Shown: positions 1-7,251 of the stretch, piece after piece
How the letters are laid out: each line of letters opens with the position of its first letter
How positions within the stretch are numbered: the first letter of the stretch is position 1
DNA from: Patescibacteria group bacterium
GTDB lineage: Bacteria; Patescibacteriota; Patescibacteriia; UBA2591; UBA6264
Length of the DNA: 7,251 bases
Assembly: GCA_028713575.1 (NCBI GenBank)
Contig: JAQTOB010000017.1
Span: forward strand, 1 to 7,251
Reading direction: 5' to 3'
Position numbers and translations under genes: made by a program
Notes under the pieces: generated by a model
What the model was told of the DNA's origin: nothing
Seen by the model: the letters and a program-made list of their open reading frames with translations, nothing else
Databases searched by the model: none

Positions 1-38
1 TGACAATATTCGCCACAAGCACATGCTACCAGATCTCC

Positions 39-365
39 TTACTTAAACTCTTCTATATCTTCTCCCACTTCTATTACTTCACCAGACGAGGAATACCCCA
101 TAGGCGATAGCGGCTTATCTGTTAGTTTATTTATCACCCTTTTAAATCCAACTGATATTCCTTGTTGCTTCATAATATGTAAAATTTTTTCGAGATTATT
201 TTTATTAATTTTTTTAAAGGGATTTGTTTTTGATAAGCTAGATATTTCTGTACCAGTACTTATTACTGAATAGGCATTTTTGACTAGAATAAAGTCCTTT
301 TCTACTGTAGGCACAGGTATCTCTTCGACCACAATATTTCCATTTAATTTGAATACTTTTTTCAT
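39..365 (-). CDS. Medium-chain (GroES-fold, Zn-type) dehydrogenase-like N-terminal domain, resembling the N-terminus of bi-domain oxidoreductases of sugar/polysaccharide pathways. The frame is interrupted by TAA at 39-41, so this may be a pseudogene or a sequencing error.
   Basis: The ORF-track protein ends ...PLSPMGYSSSGEVIEVGEDIEEFK. This is the typical strand-turn motif preceding the xGDxV element of ADH_N-type domains. After the TAA, the same frame continues GDLVACACGEYC to the window edge (bases 38->1), which is the expected continuation of that fold. The gene starts 8 nt downstream of the wecB stop on the same strand. Confidence 0.6.
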   Translation of the reverse strand: MKKVFKLNGNIVVEEIPVPTVEKDFILVKNAYSVISTGTEISSLSKTNPFKKINKNNLEKILHIMKQQGISVGFKRVINKLTDKPLSPMGYSSSGEVIEVGEDIEEFK

Positions 366-373
366 ATAATTAA

Positions 374-1558
374 TTAAGTTAAAATCTTATTATCCAATGC
401 TTTTATAATTCTTTTTGCACTTTTCCCATCCCAGTATTTTGGGATTTTTGACTTTTTTTGCTTGCCGGAGAGAATTTTATCGGTTTCTTTCAGAATTTTA
501 CGCCGATTATGGCCGCAGAGAACGTTTGTTCCCTGAGTTATGGTAATCGGCCTTTCGGTGTTTTCACGGATTGTCAGGCAAGGGACGCTTAATGACGTTG
601 TTTCTTGTTGAATGCCGCCGCTGTCGGTAATGAGCAGGCAAGCGTTTATCATCAAGCAAACCGTTTCTAAATAAGAAAGAGGAGATGTTAAAACGATATT
701 TTTATTTTTTAATTTATTATTTAAACCAAATTCTTTGATTCTGTTTTTTGTTCTTGGATGAATGGGGAAAATAATCGGCAATTTTTGAGAAATGATGTTA
801 AACGTTTCCAAAAGTGAGGTTAAAATTTTTTTATCATCAACATTACTTGGTCGGTGCATAGTGAGAAATGCATATTGTTTCGGTTTTAAATCAAATTGTT
901 TTAATAGTTTGTGTTTTTTATTTTTTATTTTTGATTTTTGATTTTTTAGGCTGTCAACCATAATATCGCCCACGAAGAATATTTTTTTCTTATTTATACC
1001 TTCTTTAATTAGATTTTTATTCGCTTCATATTCGGTGATAAACAAATAATCGGAAACATGGTCGGTTAAAATACGGTTAATTTCTTCCGGCATAGACATA
1101 TCTTTGGAGCGCAGGCCGGCTTCGATATGGGCGACTTTGATATGCAGTTTGGCGGCCGTCAGGGCGCAGGCCAAAGTGGCATTAACGTCGCCGACGACGA
1201 TGACTAAATCAGGTTTTTCCTTTAAACAAACCTTTTCAAATTCAATCATTGTTTTGCCGGTTTGTTCGCCATGCAGGCCGGCCTTGACACCGAGGTTGTA
1301 ATCAGGTTTGGGGATATTTAATTCTTTGAAAAAAGAGCCGGACATCTGGTAATCGTAATGTTGGCCGGTATGGACCAATTTATAGGTAATCGGGTATTTG
1401 GTTAATTGGGTAATCGGGCGGTTTTTAGTTAAACGGCGCGAAGATTTTTTTAAAAGATGACGGCTAATTTTATTAACTCTTTTTATTTCCGCAATCAGGG
1501 GAGAGATTTTCATGAAGTTGGGTCTCGCCGCGGCTACGATGATAAACTTTTTAGTCAT
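374..1558 (-). CDS. wecB: UDP-N-acetylglucosamine 2-epimerase (non-hydrolysing), WecB family
   Basis: Hallmark motifs are visible in the translation: KFIIVAAARPNFMKISPLI (N-terminal Rossmann strand), HTGQHYDYQMSGSFFKELNIPKPDYNLGV, KPDLVIVVGDVNATLACALTAAKLHIKVAHIEAGLRS, MPEEINRILTDHVSDYLF and TDSGGIQQE. I chose the start at ATG 1556-1558 (MTKKFIIV...). The 13 extra codons in the ORF track (to 1597) run through the GIY-YIG 3' end and inverted repeat and have no family counterpart. Confidence 0.9.
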   Translation of the reverse strand: MTKKFIIVAAARPNFMKISPLIAEIKRVNKISRHLLKKSSRRLTKNRPITQLTKYPITYKLVHTGQHYDYQMSGSFFKELNIPKPDYNLGVKAGLHGEQTGKTMIEFEKVCLKEKPDLVIVVGDVNATLACALTAAKLHIKVAHIEAGLRSKDMSMPEEINRILTDHVSDYLFITEYEANKNLIKEGINKKKIFFVGDIMVDSLKNQKSKIKNKKHKLLKQFDLKPKQYAFLTMHRPSNVDDKKILTSLLETFNIISQKLPIIFPIHPRTKNRIKEFGLNNKLKNKNIVLTSPLSYLETVCLMINACLLITDSGGIQQETTSLSVPCLTIRENTERPITITQGTNVLCGHNRRKILKETDKILSGKQKKSKIPKYWDGKSAKRIIKALDNKILT

Positions 1559-1584
1559 ATATTTATTATTAAGGCGACCTTCAT

Positions 1585-1824
1585 TCACCCCGCACATTCT
1601 ATGCTATTTTTAATTCTGTTTTTGAGTTCTTGGTATGCCTTGCCAAAATATTTCAAATGTTTTTCTCTTTGCCGAGATTCGTTTTCTGATGAAAATGCTT
1701 CATAGTAGACCAAAGAGTAAGGTTTTTGTTTTTGATGTTCGGCAAGCCTCCTTTTTAGGTTGTTTGTGGACCCAATATATAGTTTCTTATTAATTTTGTT
1801 TTTAAGGATATATGTGTAATACAT
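1585..1824 (-). CDS. Small stand-alone GIY-YIG nuclease-domain protein (COG2827/UPF0213-like), 79 aa
   Basis: The translation MYYTYILKNKINKKLYIGSTNNLKRRLAEH...LVYYEAFSSENESRQREKHLK shows the GIY (YTYIL) and YIG (LYIGST) strands, the conserved Arg (KRRLxEH), and the Glu-containing helix (ExxRQREKxLK). I chose the start at ATG 1822-1824. The upstream 17 codons in the ORF track read out of frame through the wecB-like stub. Confidence 0.85.
   Translation of the reverse strand: MYYTYILKNKINKKLYIGSTNNLKRRLAEHQKQKPYSLVYYEAFSSENESRQREKHLKYFGKAYQELKNRIKNSIECAG
1587..1600. repeat. Left arm of a 14-bp perfect inverted repeat flanking the GIY-YIG ORF (ACCCCGCACATTCT on the + strand)
   Basis: The reverse complement of 1836-1849 (AGAATGTGCGGGGT) is identical to 1587-1600. 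An imperfect extension pairs 1572-1586 with 1850-1866. This arm overlaps the last GIY-YIG codons (TGT GCG GGG TGA). Confidence 0.85.
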
Positions 1825-1828
1825 GATA

Positions 1829-1900
1829 TTAATTAAGAATGTGCGGGGTAAAGTTAGGTCTTGCCGCCGCGACAATGATGAATTTTTTTTGTTTTTTCAC
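1829..1900 (-). pseudogene. Duplicated or remnant wecB 5' end: a 23-codon stub, (GTG)KKQKKFIIVAAARPNF-TPHILN-stop
   Basis: Minus-strand codons 1888->1850 encode KKFIIVAAARPNF, identical in protein to wecB codons 3-15 (1552->1514). 31/39 nt are identical and all 8 differences are synonymous third positions. The frame then leaves wecB homology at the inverted-repeat boundary and stops at TAA 1829-1831. Confidence 0.55.
1836..1849. repeat. Right arm of the 14-bp perfect inverted repeat flanking the GIY-YIG ORF
   Basis: AGAATGTGCGGGGT lies 11 nt upstream (minus-strand sense) of the GIY-YIG ATG. It abuts the wecB-like stub exactly where stub/wecB homology ends (1849/1850). Confidence 0.85.
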
Positions 1901-1921
1901 AGATTACAAATTTATATGGTT

Positions 1922-1930
1922 TGTTATACT
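1922..1930 (+). promoter_or_regulatory. Candidate extended -10 element (TGtTATACT) for the thermonuclease gene
   Basis: TG-n-TATACT ends 6 nt before ATG 1937. There is no good -35 at 17 nt and no Shine-Dalgarno sequence, so any transcript would be leaderless or nearly so. Confidence 0.3.
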
Positions 1931-1936
1931 ATATTT

Positions 1937-2770
1937 ATGGAAAAGAATACTTTGCGAAAAATTAAACAATGGATTTTGGGTTCTATTGCGGTTGTCGGCG
2001 CGGTGTTAGGCGTTCTTACTTTAACCGGAACCCATGAATCATTAAGGAAATTCTTGGCCGGTTTGCTGATTGTTTTGTCTGTCTTGTTTGGCCTCACTGG
2101 CTTGGTGGATTCCGAAGAGGCGAAGCCGGTATCCGATAATCTTTATTTTGTTGATGAGGTTATTGACGGAGATACAATTGGAATAAATGGAAATATGAAG
2201 ATTCGCCTGATTGGCATTGACGCGCCGGAAAGTGATGAATGTTATTATGAAGAATCAAGAGACGAATTGATAAGGTTGGTTCAAGAAAAATACGTAAGAC
2301 TGGAGAAAGATGTTGACAGCGTTGACGGACTTGGCAGATTATTGCGTTATGTATATTTGCCCGGCGAGGACTTGGAAGAAGACGATATATTTGTAAACGA
2401 ACATCTTTTGCGTCAGGGATATGCGCAAACACTTTCCCATGCGCCCAATAATCGATATAAGATGCTTTTTGTCAAAGCAAGAGAAGAAGCATTAATCCAG
2501 AGAAGGGGATTATGGAGCGATGAATGCGATTATTTGGAAGAATTTGAAGAAGAAAATGAGTTGACTCGCGAGATAAACGAACTCCCGTCTGACCCAAATT
2601 GTCTTATTAAAGGAAATATCTCCAGTCGCGGAGCGGGCAAGTTGTATTTTCCTCCCGGCTGCAGCAGCTATAATCAGATAAAGATAGACCCAAGTAAAGG
2701 AGAACAATATTTTTGCACCGAGGAGGAGGCGATTGCCGCCGGGTTTAAAAAGTCTGGTAATTGCCCTTAA
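1937..2770 (+). CDS. Membrane-anchored thermonuclease (staphylococcal nuclease/SNase-like) with a Cys-containing C-terminal module
   Basis: There are two N-terminal hydrophobic segments (WILGSIAVVGAVLGVLTLTG and FLAGLLIVLSVLFGLTGLV). The SNase core is VIDGDTI...IRLIGIDAPE...GRLLRYVY...VNEHLLRQGYA...EEALIQRRGLWS. An acidic linker follows, then a C-terminal KGNISSRGxKLYFPPGCSSYNQIKIDPSKGEQYFCTEEEAIAAGFKKS module of the kind often fused to secreted nucleases. I chose the start at ATG 1937 (MEKNTLRK...) just before the first hydrophobic segment; ATG 1916 is an alternative. Confidence 0.85.
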   Translation: MEKNTLRKIKQWILGSIAVVGAVLGVLTLTGTHESLRKFLAGLLIVLSVLFGLTGLVDSEEAKPVSDNLYFVDEVIDGDTIGINGNMKIRLIGIDAPESDECYYEESRDELIRLVQEKYVRLEKDVDSVDGLGRLLRYVYLPGEDLEEDDIFVNEHLLRQGYAQTLSHAPNNRYKMLFVKAREEALIQRRGLWSDECDYLEEFEEENELTREINELPSDPNCLIKGNISSRGAGKLYFPPGCSSYNQIKIDPSKGEQYFCTEEEAIAAGFKKSGNCP

Positions 2771-2773
2771 AAA

Positions 2774-2824
2774 TTTGGAGACCAAGTCTCCAAAAGTTTG
2801 GAGACCTGGTCTCCAAACTTTTTT
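2774..2824. terminator. Tandem hairpins (type A) forming a bidirectional intrinsic terminator between convergent genes
   Basis: Hairpin 1 is TTTGGAGAC-caa-GTCTCCAAA (2774-2794). Hairpin 2 is the 31-bp palindrome AAAAGTTTGGAGACC-t-GGTCTCCAAACTTTT (2792-2822), followed by TT. It lies between the nuclease stop (2770) and the AbiEi-like stop (2826). Confidence 0.7.
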
Positions 2825-2825
2825 A

Positions 2826-3449
2826 CTAGTCCTTAATTTGTTCTTTGATTATGTTTGTTAATTTTAACATTGCGGAAGATTGAATTTTTTGATTAGGGAT
2901 TTTTTTAACCCATTCTTTTGCTTTTTTAAAACTGAAATTTTTAGGAAAGCGCAATTCCGGGAAATATGAGAATTGTTTTTTTTTGTATCCGGCAAGGTAG
3001 AGGCAGTCCGCCAAGGCCTTTTCTGGTTCGGCAATAAGAAAACCTTTTTCATTTTTATACCAGTTAAATCCATGAAAAAACTTCGGTGTTATTTGATGGA
3101 GAGAAAAGGTTCCCAATTTAGTGACGATTGTTTTTGTGTGTCCGGTTGAGGCCAACGTTATTACTTGGGGTATTTGTTCAATAATGCCGTAAAGATGCAG
3201 GGCGCTTATAAACGAGAGATAACATCGGCGCAGGGGAAATAAAAAGGGGATAAGAATATAAGGACTTAATGGTTTATCAGTTATCTCGGCCCAAATTCCT
3301 TTATAGATTTTTAAAACTACCCCCTGTTTTTGGAGATAATTAAGAGATTGGGTTGTATTTGACAATGATTTTTTAGAGATGGTGGATAATTCCGCGGTGC
3401 TGAAAATGGGTTGATTTATTTTTTTGATAAAGTTTAAAATTGACGTCAT
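2826..3449 (-). CDS. abiEi: AbiEi-like winged-HTH protein (type IV TA antitoxin / COG5340-type regulator), module 1
   Basis: The N-terminal wHTH-like segment is FSTAELSTISKKSLSNTTQSLNYLQKQGVVLKIYKGIW. The C-terminal domain motifs are YLSFISALHLYGIIEQIP and FLIAEPEKALADCLYL, shared with the partial paralogue at 6863-7251. Its ATG overlaps the TGA of the upstream nucleotidyltransferase gene (ATGA, 3446-3449). Confidence 0.75.
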   Translation of the reverse strand: MTSILNFIKKINQPIFSTAELSTISKKSLSNTTQSLNYLQKQGVVLKIYKGIWAEITDKPLSPYILIPFLFPLRRCYLSFISALHLYGIIEQIPQVITLASTGHTKTIVTKLGTFSLHQITPKFFHGFNWYKNEKGFLIAEPEKALADCLYLAGYKKKQFSYFPELRFPKNFSFKKAKEWVKKIPNQKIQSSAMLKLTNIIKEQIKD

Positions 3450-4237
3450 TTTTTTAATTCTTCTAAAAAATTAATTGTTTTTAATTTGATTTCGTCCCAG
3501 GTGGAAGGAGAATTATATATTTTCTGGTCTTCTTTTAGGAGATAAGAAACGACCTTATCCTTAAATTCTTCAAAACCGGTTTCAAGAATATACTCCTCGG
3601 CCTTTTTTATTTTTCCCGGATTTAAGCTGATTTTTTTTCTATCACCTGATTCAATCTGAGGAATCATAATATAAATGTCGAAAATATCTCTAACCTCCAT
3701 TATTTTTCTGGTAATCAAGGCTTCTATTTTTTGCAAGACGGCAGCCATGGCGTCGTAATGGGGGACCAACAGCGGCGCTGCTTTATATTCATGCAAAATG
3801 GCGTTTGACACAGTTTCAATTTTAATTTTATTTCCGCTTAAGATTGGTGATTGCCGGCGGGAGAATTCGATTTTTGTGAAGAAATCTTCAGACCGAGGGG
3901 TGACGAGATGAATCTTAAATCTTTGAGTGGTTTGCGTTTGTTTTGCCTTTTCCATATTCGGAGGAATTATTTTTTCTATACCGAACGGTTTAAGGTTGTT
4001 TTGGAAAATGTTGGATTCCAGAATCCACATAACCTTATTTCTTAGAACGTCCGTTCGGATGATTTGGACATCTAAATCCATATCCTCGGAATAGCGAATA
4101 CTTTTATAGAAAAAACGCAAATTCACTCCTCCCTTGAGAGCGTAATAACTTGGATTTACTTTTTTACCCAACCATCTTAAAAATTCAAGGTGAAAGATTT
4201 CCACTAATTGTAAGGGGTTGTAATTCTTATAGTTCAT
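3446..4237 (-). CDS. abiEii: Nucleotidyltransferase AbiEii/AbiGii toxin family (DUF1814), module 1
   Basis: Family signature: LKGGVNLRFFYKSIRYSEDMDLDV (KGGxxLR...RxSxDxDxxV), IEFSRR, and the C-terminal KIEALITRKIMEVRDIFDIY (R-x-RD-x-F/Y-DI). It is paralogous to 6096-6866. Confidence 0.85.
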   Translation of the reverse strand: MNYKNYNPLQLVEIFHLEFLRWLGKKVNPSYYALKGGVNLRFFYKSIRYSEDMDLDVQIIRTDVLRNKVMWILESNIFQNNLKPFGIEKIIPPNMEKAKQTQTTQRFKIHLVTPRSEDFFTKIEFSRRQSPILSGNKIKIETVSNAILHEYKAAPLLVPHYDAMAAVLQKIEALITRKIMEVRDIFDIYIMIPQIESGDRKKISLNPGKIKKAEEYILETGFEEFKDKVVSYLLKEDQKIYNSPSTWDEIKLKTINFLEELKK

Positions 4238-4245
4238 TAATATGT

Positions 4246-4274
4246 ATTATAATTTAGTCATAACTAAATTGCAA
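4246..4274 (-). promoter_or_regulatory. Candidate promoter of AbiE module 1 with a palindromic operator in the spacer
   Basis: On the minus strand: TTGCAA (4274->4269), a 17-nt spacer, TATAAT (4251->4246), then 8 nt to ATG 4237. The spacer is filled by the palindrome ATTTAGT-cata-ACTAAAT (4252-4269), whose last base overlaps the -35. No Shine-Dalgarno sequence. Confidence 0.45.
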
Positions 4275-4349
4275 GACATTTTAAATAATAAGTCTTTTAT
4301 CCATCAGTCCTTTATCCTGATTTGGAGGCTATTTTTCAGGCGAAGCTGC

Positions 4350-4400
4350 TTTGGAGACCAAGTCTCCAAAAACTTGGAGACCTGGTCTCCAAACTTTTTT
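4350..4400. terminator. Second copy of the type A tandem hairpins (terminator of the HTH gene)
   Basis: TTTGGAGAC-caa-GTCTCCAAA followed by (A)ACTTGGAGACC-t-GGTCTCCAAACTTTTTT. 4350-4410 matches 2774-2834 with 3 mismatches in 61 bp by my hand alignment. It overlaps the stop of the HTH gene (4399). Confidence 0.7.
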
Positions 4401-4644
4401 ACCAGTCCTTGATTCTTTTTTTCGTTTTTTCTTTTATTTCGCGATAAATTTTTTGTGCTTCTTTTTCCAGAACAGGGGAGATTAAACGCAAAATTTCCGC
4501 GCCCAAGATGCGGTATTGACCGCCGACTTTATTGGCGCGGATTAGTCCCTTTTTTAGCCAGCGTTTAATTGTGCTTTTGCTAATTTTAAGAAAATCCCGG
4601 GTTTCTTCCGTGGTATAAACATTGTTTGGTTTTATCTCTTGCAT
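4399..4644 (-). CDS. Small helix-turn-helix DNA-binding protein, excisionase/MerR-like (HTH_17-type)
   Basis: VYTTEETRDFLKISKSTIKRWLKKGLIRANKVGGQYRILGAEILRLI matches the pattern of excisionase-family HTH domains (xxTxxEaaxxLgvSrsTiyrwxkxGxlxaxKvGgxxRixxxxl). 81 aa with a basic C-terminal tail. Confidence 0.8.
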   Translation of the reverse strand: MQEIKPNNVYTTEETRDFLKISKSTIKRWLKKGLIRANKVGGQYRILGAEILRLISPVLEKEAQKIYREIKEKTKKRIKDW

Positions 4645-4650
4645 AGATAA

Positions 4651-4687
4651 ATTATAAAATGATTATAAAAGGTGTCAATAGGTGTCA
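4651..4687 (-). promoter_or_regulatory. Candidate promoter of the HTH gene with a tandem AGGTGTCA repeat over the -35
   Basis: On the minus strand: TTGACA (4678->4673), a 16-nt spacer, TATAAT (4656->4651), then 6 nt to ATG 4644. The direct repeat AGGTGTCA occurs at 4670-4677 and 4680-4687, 10 bp apart. No Shine-Dalgarno sequence. Confidence 0.45.
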
Positions 4688-4709
4688 TCTAAATATCTGT
4701 GGATAAATT

Positions 4710-4740
4710 AAAAGTTTGGTGGCTCGGCCACCAAACTTTT
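4710..4740. repeat. Type B palindromic hairpin AAAAGTTTGGTGGC-tcg-GCCACCAAACTTTT
   Basis: 14-bp perfect arms with a 3-nt loop. It is flanked by an A-run and a T-run, giving a terminator-like shape in both directions. An extra half-site CCCAAACTTTTT lies at 4771-4782. It shares its 10-bp base with the type A hairpins. Confidence 0.65.
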
Positions 4741-4930
4741 CTGAAAAACAAAAAAACTAAAGGCCCCACTCCCAAACTTTTTAAATGGAGAGTTTAATAA
4801 AGATTTAACCAAATGGTTGGCATAATACAACCTTTAAAAAAACCTTATAAATCCCAGGGATAAAAAATTTATATGGAATTCTTAAGGATTTTATCCATGT
4901 ACTTATCTCATACATTTCTCGTACATTCTA

Positions 4931-4959
4931 TTGACAAAGAGACAAAAATTTGCTAGTAT
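4931..4959 (+). promoter_or_regulatory. Near-consensus sigma70-type promoter for the orphan secreted-protein gene
   Basis: TTGACA (4931-4936), a 17-nt spacer ending in TGc (extended -10), then TAGTAT (4954-4959). The gene start lies about 55 nt downstream. Confidence 0.55.
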
Positions 4960-5014
4960 TTATATATGTGATGATATAGTAAATAAAAAAAGTTCATTAA
5001 AAAAAGGAGGAAAA

Positions 5015-5620
5015 GTGAAAAAACTTTTTTCTGTTTCTGTGGTTTCTGTAATAATTCTATCAACACTTTTTGCCAGGGGACTGTCCACCGATCTTGGCCT
5101 TGCGCTAAGAAAGGTGAGTATTTCTTCGGGGAAGAGCGCGATGTCTTCAGGATTAGAGGTCTATATGGGATTTTGTTCGCGTGATGGTGAACATTTTTTA
5201 TCCATGAAGGCCAACGAGGGCTTATCGCAGGTGACTTACTTGAGATCCTTAGGGCGGTTTTCGTATGGGTCGTCATTTGGTCAAAAGACCAATGCCCCCT
5301 TTATTGCCCCAATGCTCGTTTATGCTCATAAAGGCATAGCATTAACGAGCTGGAATGGGATTTTTCTAGGACATCCAGAACATCCCTCATGTCCAAAGTG
5401 GAAAAGCAGATTTGCTTTTTCCTATCACGCGGTAGACGTGTTGGTCGGAAACTTTGGACTTGGTTATTCCCTGTTACATTATTTAAAACAGGAACCAATG
5501 AGTTTGCCCTACATCAAATGGATATGGGAACTTGGGAAAATAGGATCTAGCTTTTCCTTAACTTATAATGTGAGGGATAAAGCGCCCATGTTTATGGTCC
5601 AGGGGTCTTATTCTCTTTAA
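5015..5620 (+). CDS. Hypothetical exported protein (201 aa) with an N-terminal signal peptide; family not recognised
   Basis: GTG 5015 is preceded by AAGGAGG (5004-5010) at ideal spacing. The N-terminus (M)KKLFSVSVVSVIILSTLFARG is signal-peptide-like. The mature part is Ser/Gly/aromatic-rich with alternating hydrophobic stretches (FAFSYHAV, GLGYSLLHY, SFSLTYNV, MFMVQGSYSL), suggesting beta-rich structure. The 28 upstream codons in the ORF track overlap the promoter and are unlikely to be translated. Confidence 0.65.
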   Translation: MKKLFSVSVVSVIILSTLFARGLSTDLGLALRKVSISSGKSAMSSGLEVYMGFCSRDGEHFLSMKANEGLSQVTYLRSLGRFSYGSSFGQKTNAPFIAPMLVYAHKGIALTSWNGIFLGHPEHPSCPKWKSRFAFSYHAVDVLVGNFGLGYSLLHYLKQEPMSLPYIKWIWELGKIGSSFSLTYNVRDKAPMFMVQGSYSL

Positions 5621-5652
5621 TCCCAGGATATAAAATCGGAAAACTTTTAACT

Positions 5653-5689
5653 TCCCCGCGTGATAATTCTTATTATCTGCGGGGATTTT
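5653..5689 (+). terminator. Weak or imperfect hairpin downstream of the orphan gene
   Basis: TCCCCGC (5653-5659) pairs with GCGGGGA (5679-5685). An inner GATAA/TTATC pairing is present, followed by TTTT. The long interior loop makes it a poor canonical terminator. Confidence 0.3.
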
Positions 5690-5760
5690 ACTATAACGGA
5701 AGATTCAATAAATAATCGGATTTAGAGAAAACTAAAAAACAAAAAATCTATTTAAAGGAG

Positions 5761-5786
5761 AAGGACGCATATTAGCGTCCTTTTTT
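5761..5786 (+). terminator. Rho-independent terminator (plus-strand only)
   Basis: AAGGACGC-atatta-GCGTCCTT followed by a T run (TTTTTT at 5781-5786). The opposite strand lacks a T-tract. It lies about 140 nt after the orphan gene stop. Confidence 0.6.
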
Positions 5787-6034
5787 GCCGGGTCAGGTCA
5801 AACCAAACCTTTTATGATTTAAAAAGGTTAAATTCTTTTAAGAAGGTCTACTTATATTTTTCGACCTATCTTCTCCCCTATGATTTCGGGGGAGCTAACC
5901 TTAAACCCAAGTCCTCCTTAAATATATTTAACAATAATTTCTTTTAAAAAACAAGTGGATAACTTTTTAAAGGGGATTTTAAAATGAGAAACAAAATACT
6001 TAGGAGTCCTGTCTCTGAGTTGAAGAAAAATTAA

Positions 6035-6073
6035 AAAAGTTTGGTGGCTCGGCCACCAAACCCAAACTTTTTT
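6035..6073 (-). terminator. Second copy of the type B hairpin, acting as terminator of AbiE module 2
   Basis: AAAAGTTTGGTGGC-tcg-GCCACCAAAC followed by CCAAACTTTTTT. On the minus strand the 10-bp stem is followed by TTTTTT, 22 nt after the AbiEii-2 stop (6096). The first 27 nt are identical to 4710-4736. Confidence 0.7.
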
Positions 6074-6095
6074 AGTAGAACAGGGATTTTATTTT

Positions 6096-6866
6096 TTATA
6101 AATTAAGTTTTTGTTCAAGATATCTTTTAAGATAATCAAATAATTTTCCCAACCCACTTCTTTCATTTACGGGGACAAAAGGACGAATATCTAGTATAAA
6201 ATCTTTTTTTGAGAAGTTTTTAATTTTTTTTAAAACATCGTCTTTATTTAATTCTAGATTATAATATTTCAGCTTTTTATTTATTAGCCCTTTATCTAGC
6301 TCAACATTTTGATTTAAAAGATACCAAATATCGTAAAAATCTCTTCCTTTTGTCTTTTTTCTAGTTAAGAGCGCTCTAATTTTTTCTGCTAAAATTTCTT
6401 TTTTTGATAGATTATAGATATAAGAGGTAAACAGGACAGGATAATCCGTATTAATAATTGATTTTTGAGGGTCCATTATTTTTTCTCTAAATGAAAAATC
6501 AAGGCAGACCAGTATTTTATTAGAAAAGAGGGGAGAATTGTTTTTTAATAAAAAGGATTTACCAGCCAGCGTTTTTTTGGGTTTAAATGTTACAGACTCT
6601 TTTTTTTCTATTTTTTTAAAAAGAATTGATATGAATTTGTCAAAGTCTTTTTCTTTTATCTCAACAGTAAAGTCAAGGTCTTCTGAAAAACGGGGGGAAT
6701 TATAAATTAGGCGAAGAGCGGTTCCTCCTTTAAAAAATATTTTTTCGCTATTTTTTTCCGAATATAATTCATTTAAGAAAAATAATTGTAAATATTCCCT
6801 TAAAATTACTGATTCATTAATTTTATGTTTTTTCGCTAAAATATATATTTGTTCTTCAGTAATCAT
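6096..6866 (-). CDS. abiEii: Nucleotidyltransferase AbiEii/AbiGii toxin family (DUF1814), module 2
   Basis: IFFKGGTALRLIYNSPRFSEDLDFTV, LDFSFRE, and AEKIRALLTRKKTKGRDFYDIWYL give the same motif set as module 1, but the sequences are strongly diverged. Its ATG overlaps the TGA of the upstream gene (ATGA, 6863-6866). Confidence 0.85.
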   Translation of the reverse strand: MITEEQIYILAKKHKINESVILREYLQLFFLNELYSEKNSEKIFFKGGTALRLIYNSPRFSEDLDFTVEIKEKDFDKFISILFKKIEKKESVTFKPKKTLAGKSFLLKNNSPLFSNKILVCLDFSFREKIMDPQKSIINTDYPVLFTSYIYNLSKKEILAEKIRALLTRKKTKGRDFYDIWYLLNQNVELDKGLINKKLKYYNLELNKDDVLKKIKNFSKKDFILDIRPFVPVNERSGLGKLFDYLKRYLEQKLNL

Positions 6867-7251
6867 ATTTTAAAATATTTTTTTAATTCCTTGATAATAT
6901 TTTGAAATTGTCTTGTTGAAGGAAATTGTCTTAAGTATTTTTTTAATTTTGATTTATTTATATTAGCAAAGTCACATTCGTCCATATTTATTTTTTTATA
7001 CCCCTTAGAGGATAAATATAGTTGGTCTAAAAGAGCTTTTTCAGGAGAGGCGATGATAAAGTTATCTTTTTTTTCATAACCCCAGGATAAGTTTTTTTGT
7101 ATATGGGTATAGGTGAATATTTTGTTTTGAAATTGTTTTTCAACGGGCCTTTTAGTTGTAGCGCTGGAAATTTCATAGGGAAATTGAGAAATTATTCCAT
7201 AAAAATTTAAAGCACTTTCAAAGGATATGTAAGAGGGTTGATATAAAAAGT
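6863..7251 (-). CDS. abiEi: AbiEi-like antitoxin/regulator, module 2 (C-terminal 128 codons; the 5' end lies beyond the window)
   Basis: This ORF is not in the ORF track because it has no in-window start. My own translation of the minus strand in the frame ending at TGA 6863-6865 is open to the window edge. It reads ...LYQPSYISFESALNFYGIISQFPYEISSATTKRP...DNFIIASPEKALLDQLYLSSKGYKK...IIKELKKYFKI. It aligns by eye with YLSFISALHLYGIIEQIP and FLIAEPEKALADCLYLAGYKK of the 207-aa protein at 2826-3449. Confidence 0.7.
   Translation of the reverse strand, partial: FLYQPSYISFESALNFYGIISQFPYEISSATTKRPVEKQFQNKIFTYTHIQKNLSWGYEKKDNFIIASPEKALLDQLYLSSKGYKKINMDECDFANINKSKLKKYLRQFPSTRQFQNIIKELKKYFKI

Follow-up and report, generated by a model that had tools for sequence, protein, structure and literature searches.

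Intergenic palindromes in a Patescibacteria toxin-antitoxin islet: a probable REP-type hairpin family of a RAYT-like transposase system

The 7,251-nt stretch of Patescibacteria DNA analyzed here (contig JAQTOB010000017.1, positions 1 to 7,251; hereafter the window) is a cassette-rich toxin-antitoxin islet of 34% G+C, in which palindromes are built on a fixed 10-mer, AAAAGTTTGG, and its complement, CCAAACTTTT. We favor the reading that these palindromes are members of a hairpin family of the repetitive extragenic palindromic (REP) type, which probably belongs to a Patescibacteria system with a gene resembling REP-associated tyrosine transposases (RAYTs) and doubles in the islet as bidirectional terminators and recombination breakpoints. 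REP/RAYT systems are known mainly from Proteobacteria, and both the action of RAYTs on REPs and the persistence of the two are still debated. A family resembling REPs in Patescibacteria, whose genomes are ultra-small and streamlined, together with a transposase gene studded in frame with the same hairpins, would make up a compact system for reading enzyme-substrate specificity, concerted evolution and terminator co-option from sequence and for testing them in vitro. An initial annotation of the window had listed a REP-like element, an uptake signal and a recombination hot spot as options, and the first of these is the best supported because identical or cognate hairpins flank and sit inside RAYT-like genes of related Patescibacteria.

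Within the window, CCAAACTTTT starts at 2813, 4389, 4731, 4772 and 6062 and AAAAGTTTGG at 2792, 4710 and 6035, as the initial annotation had listed them, which amounts to eight exact 10-mers where a first-order Markov model predicts 0.087. Allowing up to one mismatch gave 11 matches against 2.35 expected, a count that was reached in none of 200 dinucleotide shuffles, and the near-copies include AAAAATTTGG at 2769-2778 and AAAAACTTGG at 4368-4377. All copies are intergenic, as had been claimed, and none lies in ordinary coding sequence, with the near-copy at 2769 overlapping the stop codon of the nuclease gene. The set consists of two type A double hairpins, two type B hairpins with a 14-bp stem and a 3-nt loop, and one half-copy (Table 1). 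Each type A copy begins with a short hairpin, TTTGGAGAC-CAA-GTCTCCAAA (2774-2794 and 4350-4370), that overlaps a second hairpin of the general form AAAA(G/A)(T/C)TTGGAGACC-T-GGTCTCCAAACTTTT (2792-2822 and 4368-4398), which is the 31-nt palindrome AAAAGTTTGGAGACC-T-GGTCTCCAAACTTTT in copy 1 and AAAAACTTGGAGACC-T-GGTCTCCAAACTTTT in copy 2. These structures, including the tandem hairpin that accompanies each type A copy, are present as first described and all fold as predicted, with energies of -19 to -40 kcal/mol and z-scores of -2.9 to -9.1: copy 1 forms a 20-pair terminator-like site (-32 kcal/mol on the + strand, -40 on the - strand), copy 2 reaches -36 kcal/mol, and the type B hairpin reaches -19.8/-20.4 kcal/mol. 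The 10-mer at 4772 had also been taken for a hairpin base and turned out to be a lone half-copy remnant that forms no hairpin.

Table 1. Members and remnants of the hairpin family in the window
Feature	Positions	Strand	Context and remarks
Type A double hairpin, copy 1	2769-2822	.	Between the convergent nuclease gene (stop 2768-2770) and AbiEi gene (stop 2826)
Type A double hairpin, copy 2	4350-4398	.	Abuts the stop of the HTH_17 gene (4399-4644, - strand); upstream of the AbiEii/AbiEi operon
Type B hairpin, AAAAGTTTGG-TGGC-TCG-GCCA-CCAAACTTTT	4710-4740	.	14-bp stem, 3-nt loop; 65 nt upstream of the HTH_17 start
Half-copy remnant, GGCCCCACTCCCAAACTTTT	4758-4781	+	3' arm only; holds the 10-mer at 4772; resembles the 3' arm of the 6035-6071 variant
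Type B variant, AAAAGTTTGGTGGCTCGGCCACCAAAC-CCAAACTTTT	6035-6071	.	6-nt CCAAAC duplication in the 3' arm

The palindromes extend well beyond the window. Exact-protein look-ups for the source strain found short Logan contigs (L001, L122 and L123), all of which end inside repeats, and a 9-kb contig, L121, extends the window to the right. L121 encodes an isoleucyl-tRNA synthetase (IleRS) that is 97% identical to a homologue on L244, a 517-kb JGI contig of a sister strain, and more distant IleRS homologues come from sources named Patescibacteria, Parcubacteria or Nealsonbacteria. L121 carries a TGGC-TAA-GCCA copy between divergent genes (587-617), and L244 carries an AGGC-TAA-GCCT copy directly after IleRS (12936-12966); at least six hairpin loci, all extragenic, occur in approximately 30 kb of source and sister strain. 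A relative, L156, that was ascertained for the family has four copies in 15 kb, and further members occupy non-orthologous sites, including in genomes whose IleRS is only 61-65% identical. A metagenome scan with the pattern AAAAGTTTGG-N7-15-CCAAACTTTT matched at least 120 loci. Among the matches listed, 58 of 121 have an 11-nt gap, and a fully paired 4-bp inner stem is present in 49 of the 62 exact 11-gap matches, where chance would give 0.4%. A Streptococcus AAAC-TTG-GTTT terminator (L024, L042, L056 and L060) with the same arms, AAAAGTTTGGAAACTTGGTTTCCAAACTTTT, and with conserved flanks was judged an orthologous chance look-alike and removed from the counts, which left at least approximately 45 copies on approximately 40 low-GC contigs with unrelated flanks. 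With copies on L121, on L244 and on dozens of unrelated metagenome contigs, the suggestion that the palindromes form a repeat family rather than a set of idiosyncratic terminators holds.

Copies of the family share the form AAAAGTTTGG-NNNC-NNN-GNNN-CCAAACTTTT, which gives a fully paired 14-bp stem and a loop of 3 nt; the outer 10 bp and the loop-closing C-G pair are fixed, and the three intervening pairs vary with full compensation. When 57 distinct copies were aligned, 97.5% of cells were paired, the loop-closing C-G pair was nearly invariant, and the three inner pairs showed 62 double-sided changes (UA/AU/GC; GC/AU/CG; GC/AU), a covariation score that none of 500 shuffles reached. The compensatory change in the upper stems that had been noticed in the window is thus confirmed and extended to the family at large.

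Clustering of the open reading frames (ORFs) adjoining the copies yielded one recurrent family, a Y1 transposase, and no other linked gene family. At three loci (L186, L209 and L216), the 31-nt palindrome lies in frame within a protein of approximately 220 residues, where it encodes EKFG-xxxx-KLFK. The protein matches Pfam PF01797 (Y1_Tnp) above the cut-off, and its best NCBIfam match is REP_Tyr_transpos, which falls below that family's cut-off. A profile search found at least approximately 8000 homologues, which their sources label as Patescibacteria 'transposase' or 'RayT', and the residues H85 and H87 (NHYHF) and Y145 (YxNLN) are invariant in 115 homologues. A sequence search of the PDB gave no match for the transposase; matches came from the fold search alone. 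Using an AlphaFold model (predicted local distance difference test score 82.6, predicted template modeling score 0.81), Foldseek returned 4ER8_A, the E. coli RAYT bound to a REP hairpin, as the best match, followed by the TnpA proteins of IS608 and ISDra2. The gene is a Patescibacteria-specific Y1/HUH tyrosine transposase of the RAYT/IS200 fold. Its neighborhood is the same in L260 and L262-264, with one gene seen per locus, and this conserved synteny suggests that it behaves as a resident, single-copy, vertically inherited gene and not as a jumping insertion sequence.

The hairpins in and around these genes tie the window palindromes to the transposase. We compared eight genes, of which three were found through their hairpin (L186, L209 and L216) and five through protein homology alone (L259, L260, L261, L262-264 and L265). 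All eight have one architecture, which consists of an upstream hairpin, two in-frame hairpins (sites 1 and 2) and often a hairpin after the stop codon. The upstream hairpin lies 20-75 nt before the start codon in seven genes and 149 nt before it in L265, and the downstream hairpin, where present, lies 0-2 nt past the stop. Site 1 covers residues ~55-73, a low-confidence loop in the AlphaFold model, and site 2 lies directly behind the helix of the catalytic tyrosine; the peptides encoded at the in-frame sites are (K/R)FG-xxxx-K and EKFG-xxxx-KLFK. In each of the eight genomes, the stem of the flanking hairpin is that of site 1, although the stem itself differs between genomes (GGAGAC, GGACAC, TTAGGTGCC, TTTGGAAG, TTTGGAGG, CTTGGGAAC, CTTAGGAGC and TTGAGGAAC). 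In six of the eight genes, the arms of site 2 are AAAAGTTTGG...CCAAACTTTT; site 2 keeps its A4/T4 flanks inside the gene, and in L261 (4027-4057) it is identical to the type B 31-mer of the window. Similarly, the type A stem TTTGGAGAC occurs in and around the RAYT-like genes of L209 and L265, translated window hairpins match the site 2 peptides of P0124, P0128, P0134 and P0144 at 83-100%, and the sister strain carries at 18670-18694 of L244 a site 1-type hairpin, AACTTAGGAGC-CGA-GCTCCCAAGTT, of the type seen around the L262 gene. In 11 of 35 proteins, a tetrapeptide that otherwise varies is common to sites 1 and 2, which indicates homogenization at the DNA level, and residue pairs with codons capable of being reverse complements are enriched in the peptides of both sites. 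Known RAYTs are flanked by their own REPs, are each tied to one REP type and are present in single copy (PMC3337134). The same hallmarks are found here at the level of the family, which leads us to read the window palindromes as REP-type hairpins.

Two further observations concern these genes. In P0141, site 2 is tandemly duplicated (EKFGSSAPKLF...PKFGSSAPKLL), which is consistent with duplication of the hairpin inside the ORF. In L262, a tandem array of approximately eight GTGAATCA units (~9860-9925) stands immediately before the upstream hairpin of the RAYT-like gene.

The placement of the dispersed copies resembles that of terminators. In approximately 70% of cases, a stop codon precedes the hairpin by no more than 30 nt, and 28 copies are in tandem, 9 in convergent and 4 in divergent gene contexts, where all of these counts are approximate because the ORF calls were crude. 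Many copies follow core genes such as IleRS in conserved contexts. Symmetric A4/T4 tracts flank the hairpins, so that a stable stem-loop and a T run stand just behind the transcription unit, as is the hallmark of intrinsic terminators, and the window hairpins match the corresponding consensus in a simple terminator scan. For example, the type B variant, which follows the second AbiEii gene (6096-6866, - strand) at 24 nt from its stop, is terminator-like on the - strand and is conserved in L121, L122, L123 and L244, and the other type B hairpin is kept in L244 at 8052-8082. From their placement and A/T tracts, the hairpins look like bidirectional intrinsic terminators, and the family provides a recognizable terminator and repeat signature for annotating genomes of the Candidate Phyla Radiation (CPR).

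The same placement would be expected of ordinary intrinsic terminators that came to be alike through local duplication, or through carriage with horizontally moved toxin-antitoxin cassettes, and that have nothing to do with a transposase. The window is rich in cassettes, and its two type A copies lie within a direct repeat of 90 nt (2774-2863 and 4350-4439, 84% identity) that brackets an AbiE cassette, which would suit such an origin. We nevertheless consider it rather unlikely, because the same 31-nt design recurs at non-orthologous sites on approximately 40 contigs and in the genomes with divergent IleRS, because copies follow core genes, and because identical, genome-specifically homogenized hairpins occur in and around RAYT-like genes. 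Ordinary terminators would also leave unexplained how inner stems are exchanged at orthologous sites, where the apex changes much faster than the flanks. Between L213 and L241, the flanks are 96.6% identical over 798 bases, yet the apices read GAAC-TGA-GTTC and ACAC-TCA-GTGT; L191 and L243 likewise differ in their inner stems (AAGC versus TGGC). Behind IleRS, the hairpin is of the GTTTGG type in L244 and L156 and of a GTTGAG type with the same geometry in L121, and the position is taken by an unrelated hairpin in L245 and L246.

Alternatively, the hairpins could act at the level of RNA, bound by an RNA-binding protein or RNase in 3'-end protection, processing or attenuation, with the in-gene copies regulating the transposase mRNA itself, for instance by premature termination after the catalytic domain. 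They are stable RNA structures at the 3' ends of transcription units, and with its A4/T4 flanks site 2 could terminate within the gene. The loops, however, show no consistent orientation relative to transcription, and the perfect two-fold symmetry, which includes the A/T tracts, and the presence of some copies between divergent genes fit a process acting on DNA better, as does the homogenization of untranslated upstream copies with in-gene copies. In addition, no Rfam family matches, since an Rfam search gave sub-threshold chance matches only. An explanation at the RNA level is thus distinctly unlikely in our estimate.

We also compared the source strain with its sister strain. L244 lacks the AbiE cassette that lies between the two type A copies and has one hybrid copy in its place. 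A second segment of 991 nt (4756-5746), which starts 15 nt after the type B hairpin and has the half-copy at its left end, is likewise missing from L244, and a 5.8-kb segment specific to L244 relative to L121 has a family hairpin at each side. With three strain-specific indels bounded by or adjoining copies, the copies coincide with strain-level breakpoints, which lends some support to the suggestion that they mark a recombination hot spot, and the family accounts for assembly breaks and cassette-level strain variation at hairpin sites. The further claim that copies mark every cassette boundary was too strong, since the junctions of the epimerase, GIY-YIG and nuclease genes have no copy and the hairpin at 5757-5785 is not a member. 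The 4756-5746 segment carries a gene for an unknown secreted protein and is bounded by A-rich direct repeats, AAAAACAAAAAA.

These indels raise the question of whether the palindromes bound mobile gene cassettes as targets of site-specific recombination, in the manner of integron attC sites. Such sites would fit an AbiE cassette that stands between two type A copies and is not shared by the sister strain, as well as two further indels that end at or beside copies. The hallmarks of attC sites are the order R''(RYYYAAC)...R'(GTTRRRY), extrahelical bases, a length of at least approximately 57 nt and an adjacent intI gene. The arms here have the reverse order (GTTTGG...CCAAAC), the stems are short, perfect and without extrahelical bases in a unit of 31 nt, and no integron integrase was found in the window, L121 or the L244 sequence examined. 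Moreover, many copies stand behind core genes in conserved contexts, and the AbiE indel is explained by deletion between direct repeats without a dedicated recombinase, which makes attC-like sites very unlikely.

Patescibacteria are thought to depend on DNA uptake, and the exact conservation of the 10-mer across divergent genomes could be read as an uptake signal embedded in terminators, like the DNA uptake sequences (DUS) of Neisseria or the uptake signal sequences (USS) of Haemophilus. However, 10-mers that appear single are arms of hairpins with a mismatched partner, except for the half-copy at 4772, and an uptake signal is unlikely because the 10-mer is almost never alone or within ordinary genes. 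The geometry is fixed, with an 11-nt gap and a covarying top, unlike that of DUS or USS pairs, and the density is far below approximately one per kb, with at most one degenerate copy in 51 kb of core-region sequence from relatives. We therefore regard the uptake option, which the initial annotation had left standing, as extremely improbable. The inverted DUS terminators of Neisseria do resemble the family in being sequence-constrained inverted repeats at terminator positions; they differ in that the family has no singletons, has its fixed geometry with a covarying apex and is much less dense.

The REP/RAYT reading is best judged against the systems on which it is modeled. Like the REPs and bacterial interspersed mosaic elements of E. 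coli with their RAYT (TnpA_REP, 4ER8), the family consists of short extragenic palindromes between tandem and convergent genes and is accompanied by a Y1/HUH transposase of the same fold whose gene is flanked by its own hairpins. Unlike the E. coli system, its stems are perfect, with A4/T4 tracts and without a GTAG-like conserved 5' flank; the transposase is approximately 220 residues long with an insertion of ~30 residues and a C-terminal extension of ~60 residues; two in-frame hairpins lie within the ORF; and the host is a member of the Patescibacteria. The REPIN-RAYT systems of Pseudomonas (Bertels and Rainey; PMC3116915, PMC3337134) share with it one hairpin type per RAYT, a gene that behaves as single copy and vertically inherited, and doublets of which some are flanked by A and T runs; REP doublets with such flanks have been read as co-opted terminators (PMC3337134). 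In contrast to REPINs, the family consists mostly of single hairpins, its type A 'doublet' is made of two hairpins that overlap and leave no spacer, and the copy number per genome seems low to moderate. In IS200/IS605 elements, too, the gene of a Y1 HUH transposase has hairpins close by on either side, but the gene described here sits in conserved synteny instead of scattered multi-copy units, and its hairpins are dispersed without it (five in the window, with no transposase). The most unusual departure from canonical REPs is the presence of copies in frame inside the gene. The literature searched held no report of in-gene hairpin copies for REP/RAYT systems, and nothing relevant on RAYTs, REPs, uptake sequences or terminators in CPR or Patescibacteria.

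By analogy with these systems, the RAYT-like enzyme would recognize the hairpins as single-stranded DNA and would cut and join them, and it may spread or homogenize them in the way that E. coli TnpA_REP acts on REPs. The host would in turn use copies with the A-tract, stem and T-tract as bidirectional Rho-independent terminators, and the hairpins, as repeated palindromes, could act as breakpoints for the gain and loss of cassettes in the toxin-antitoxin islet.

Several points weigh against this reading. The gene check that the initial annotation proposed is positive at the level of the family, in related Patescibacteria. For these strains, approximately 38 kb of source and sister strain (the window, L121 and the L244 sequence) yielded no RAYT-like gene, and none of the best-listed RAYT-like homologues lies on the 517-kb contig of the sister strain. 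Hallmarks of REPs are also missing, as the family lacks a conserved GTAG-like flank and its stems are perfect instead of bulged, and the flanks of the 57 copies are unconserved beyond the A/T tracts. The density is uneven, as the IleRS-selected relatives L245 and L246 have no copy and L247 has one degenerate copy in 51 kb in total, and with such patchiness, hundreds of copies in a genome are not to be assumed. The search pattern is itself responsible for part of the outer-arm conservation in the metagenome set; arms of equal conservation are seen in sequences that came to light without it, namely the window, L121, L244 and the RAYT-like genes of L260, L261 and L262. Relative to transcription, loops read CGA against TCG at 6:0 and TTG against CAA at 2:0, the latter in the opposite sense, and in-gene copies have both. 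Finally, the mechanistic steps of cleavage, transposition and termination are drawn from analogy.

A more specific version of the REP/RAYT reading, which we put forward tentatively, is that the RAYT-like gene serves as a protected master copy, with the hairpins on which its product acts built in frame into two fixed sites, and that the extragenic hairpins might be seeded and homogenized from it. The in-gene hairpin might also terminate the gene's own transcript after the catalytic domain. Such a self-contained REP-RAYT design would be one not described before, in which the dispersed copies may serve as the lineage's preferred bidirectional terminators and as breakpoints for cassette exchange.

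Several candidates met in the searches were set aside. A canonical RAYT in L153 (NCBIfam REP_Tyr_transpos, 73.7 bits) lies 348 nt from a family hairpin, an adjacency that is probably coincidental; this gene is flanked by a different 16-bp inverted repeat of its own, GGTGTCAGGAACC/GGTGTCAGGAACCTTT, at 1115-1138 and 1831-1855, so that organisms of this kind also have a second repeat type. In a genome collection, the pattern A3GTTTGG-N5-25-CCAAACT3 was too generic, as its matches were isolated, unrelated terminators in a wide variety of bacteria. The family was absent from IMG/VR viral contigs, where 11 matches represent one orthologous phage locus with a different inner structure. A Desulfobacterales repeat shares a 9-mer with the family by chance only; the repeat itself, GGAGTGCCAAACTG-AAAGTTTGGCAGAAAATGCAGGCTCCCAAACTTT-CAGTTTGGGACTCC, is an unrelated, larger, nested palindrome on six contigs of one metagenome-assembled genome (MAG), CAZDIU01 (L010, L011, L031, L033, L040 and L081). 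Two low-GC, family-bearing contigs, L013 and L020, carry nominal 'Gammaproteobacteria' MAG labels.

Other repeats were seen near the family. On L244, a second hairpin repeat, AAAATCCTGCTATAATAAAAGCAGGATTTT, has three copies (16296-16321, 18716-18745 and 21694-21719), two of which precede near-identical 281-aa genes whose products share 274 of 282 residues. Small palindromes, GGGGTCTGACCCC and GAGGTCAGACCTC, occur near family hairpins on several Patescibacteria contigs, in L121 (4390-4520), L195 (~260) and L141 (~2030) and may constitute another repeat family.

The genes of the window encode a UDP-GlcNAc 2-epimerase, a small GIY-YIG protein, a staphylococcal-nuclease homologue, two AbiEi/AbiEii toxin-antitoxin pairs, an HTH_17 protein and the unknown secreted protein. 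In the region 1490-1935, the first approximately 40 nt that code for the epimerase (1520-1558, encoding KKFIIVAAARPNF) recur as a duplicate of ~80% identity ahead of the GIY-YIG ORF (~1846-1884), and this ORF is bracketed by a 25-nt inverted repeat (1576-1600 and 1836-1860). The GIY-YIG gene looks like an insertion into the 5' end of the epimerase gene.

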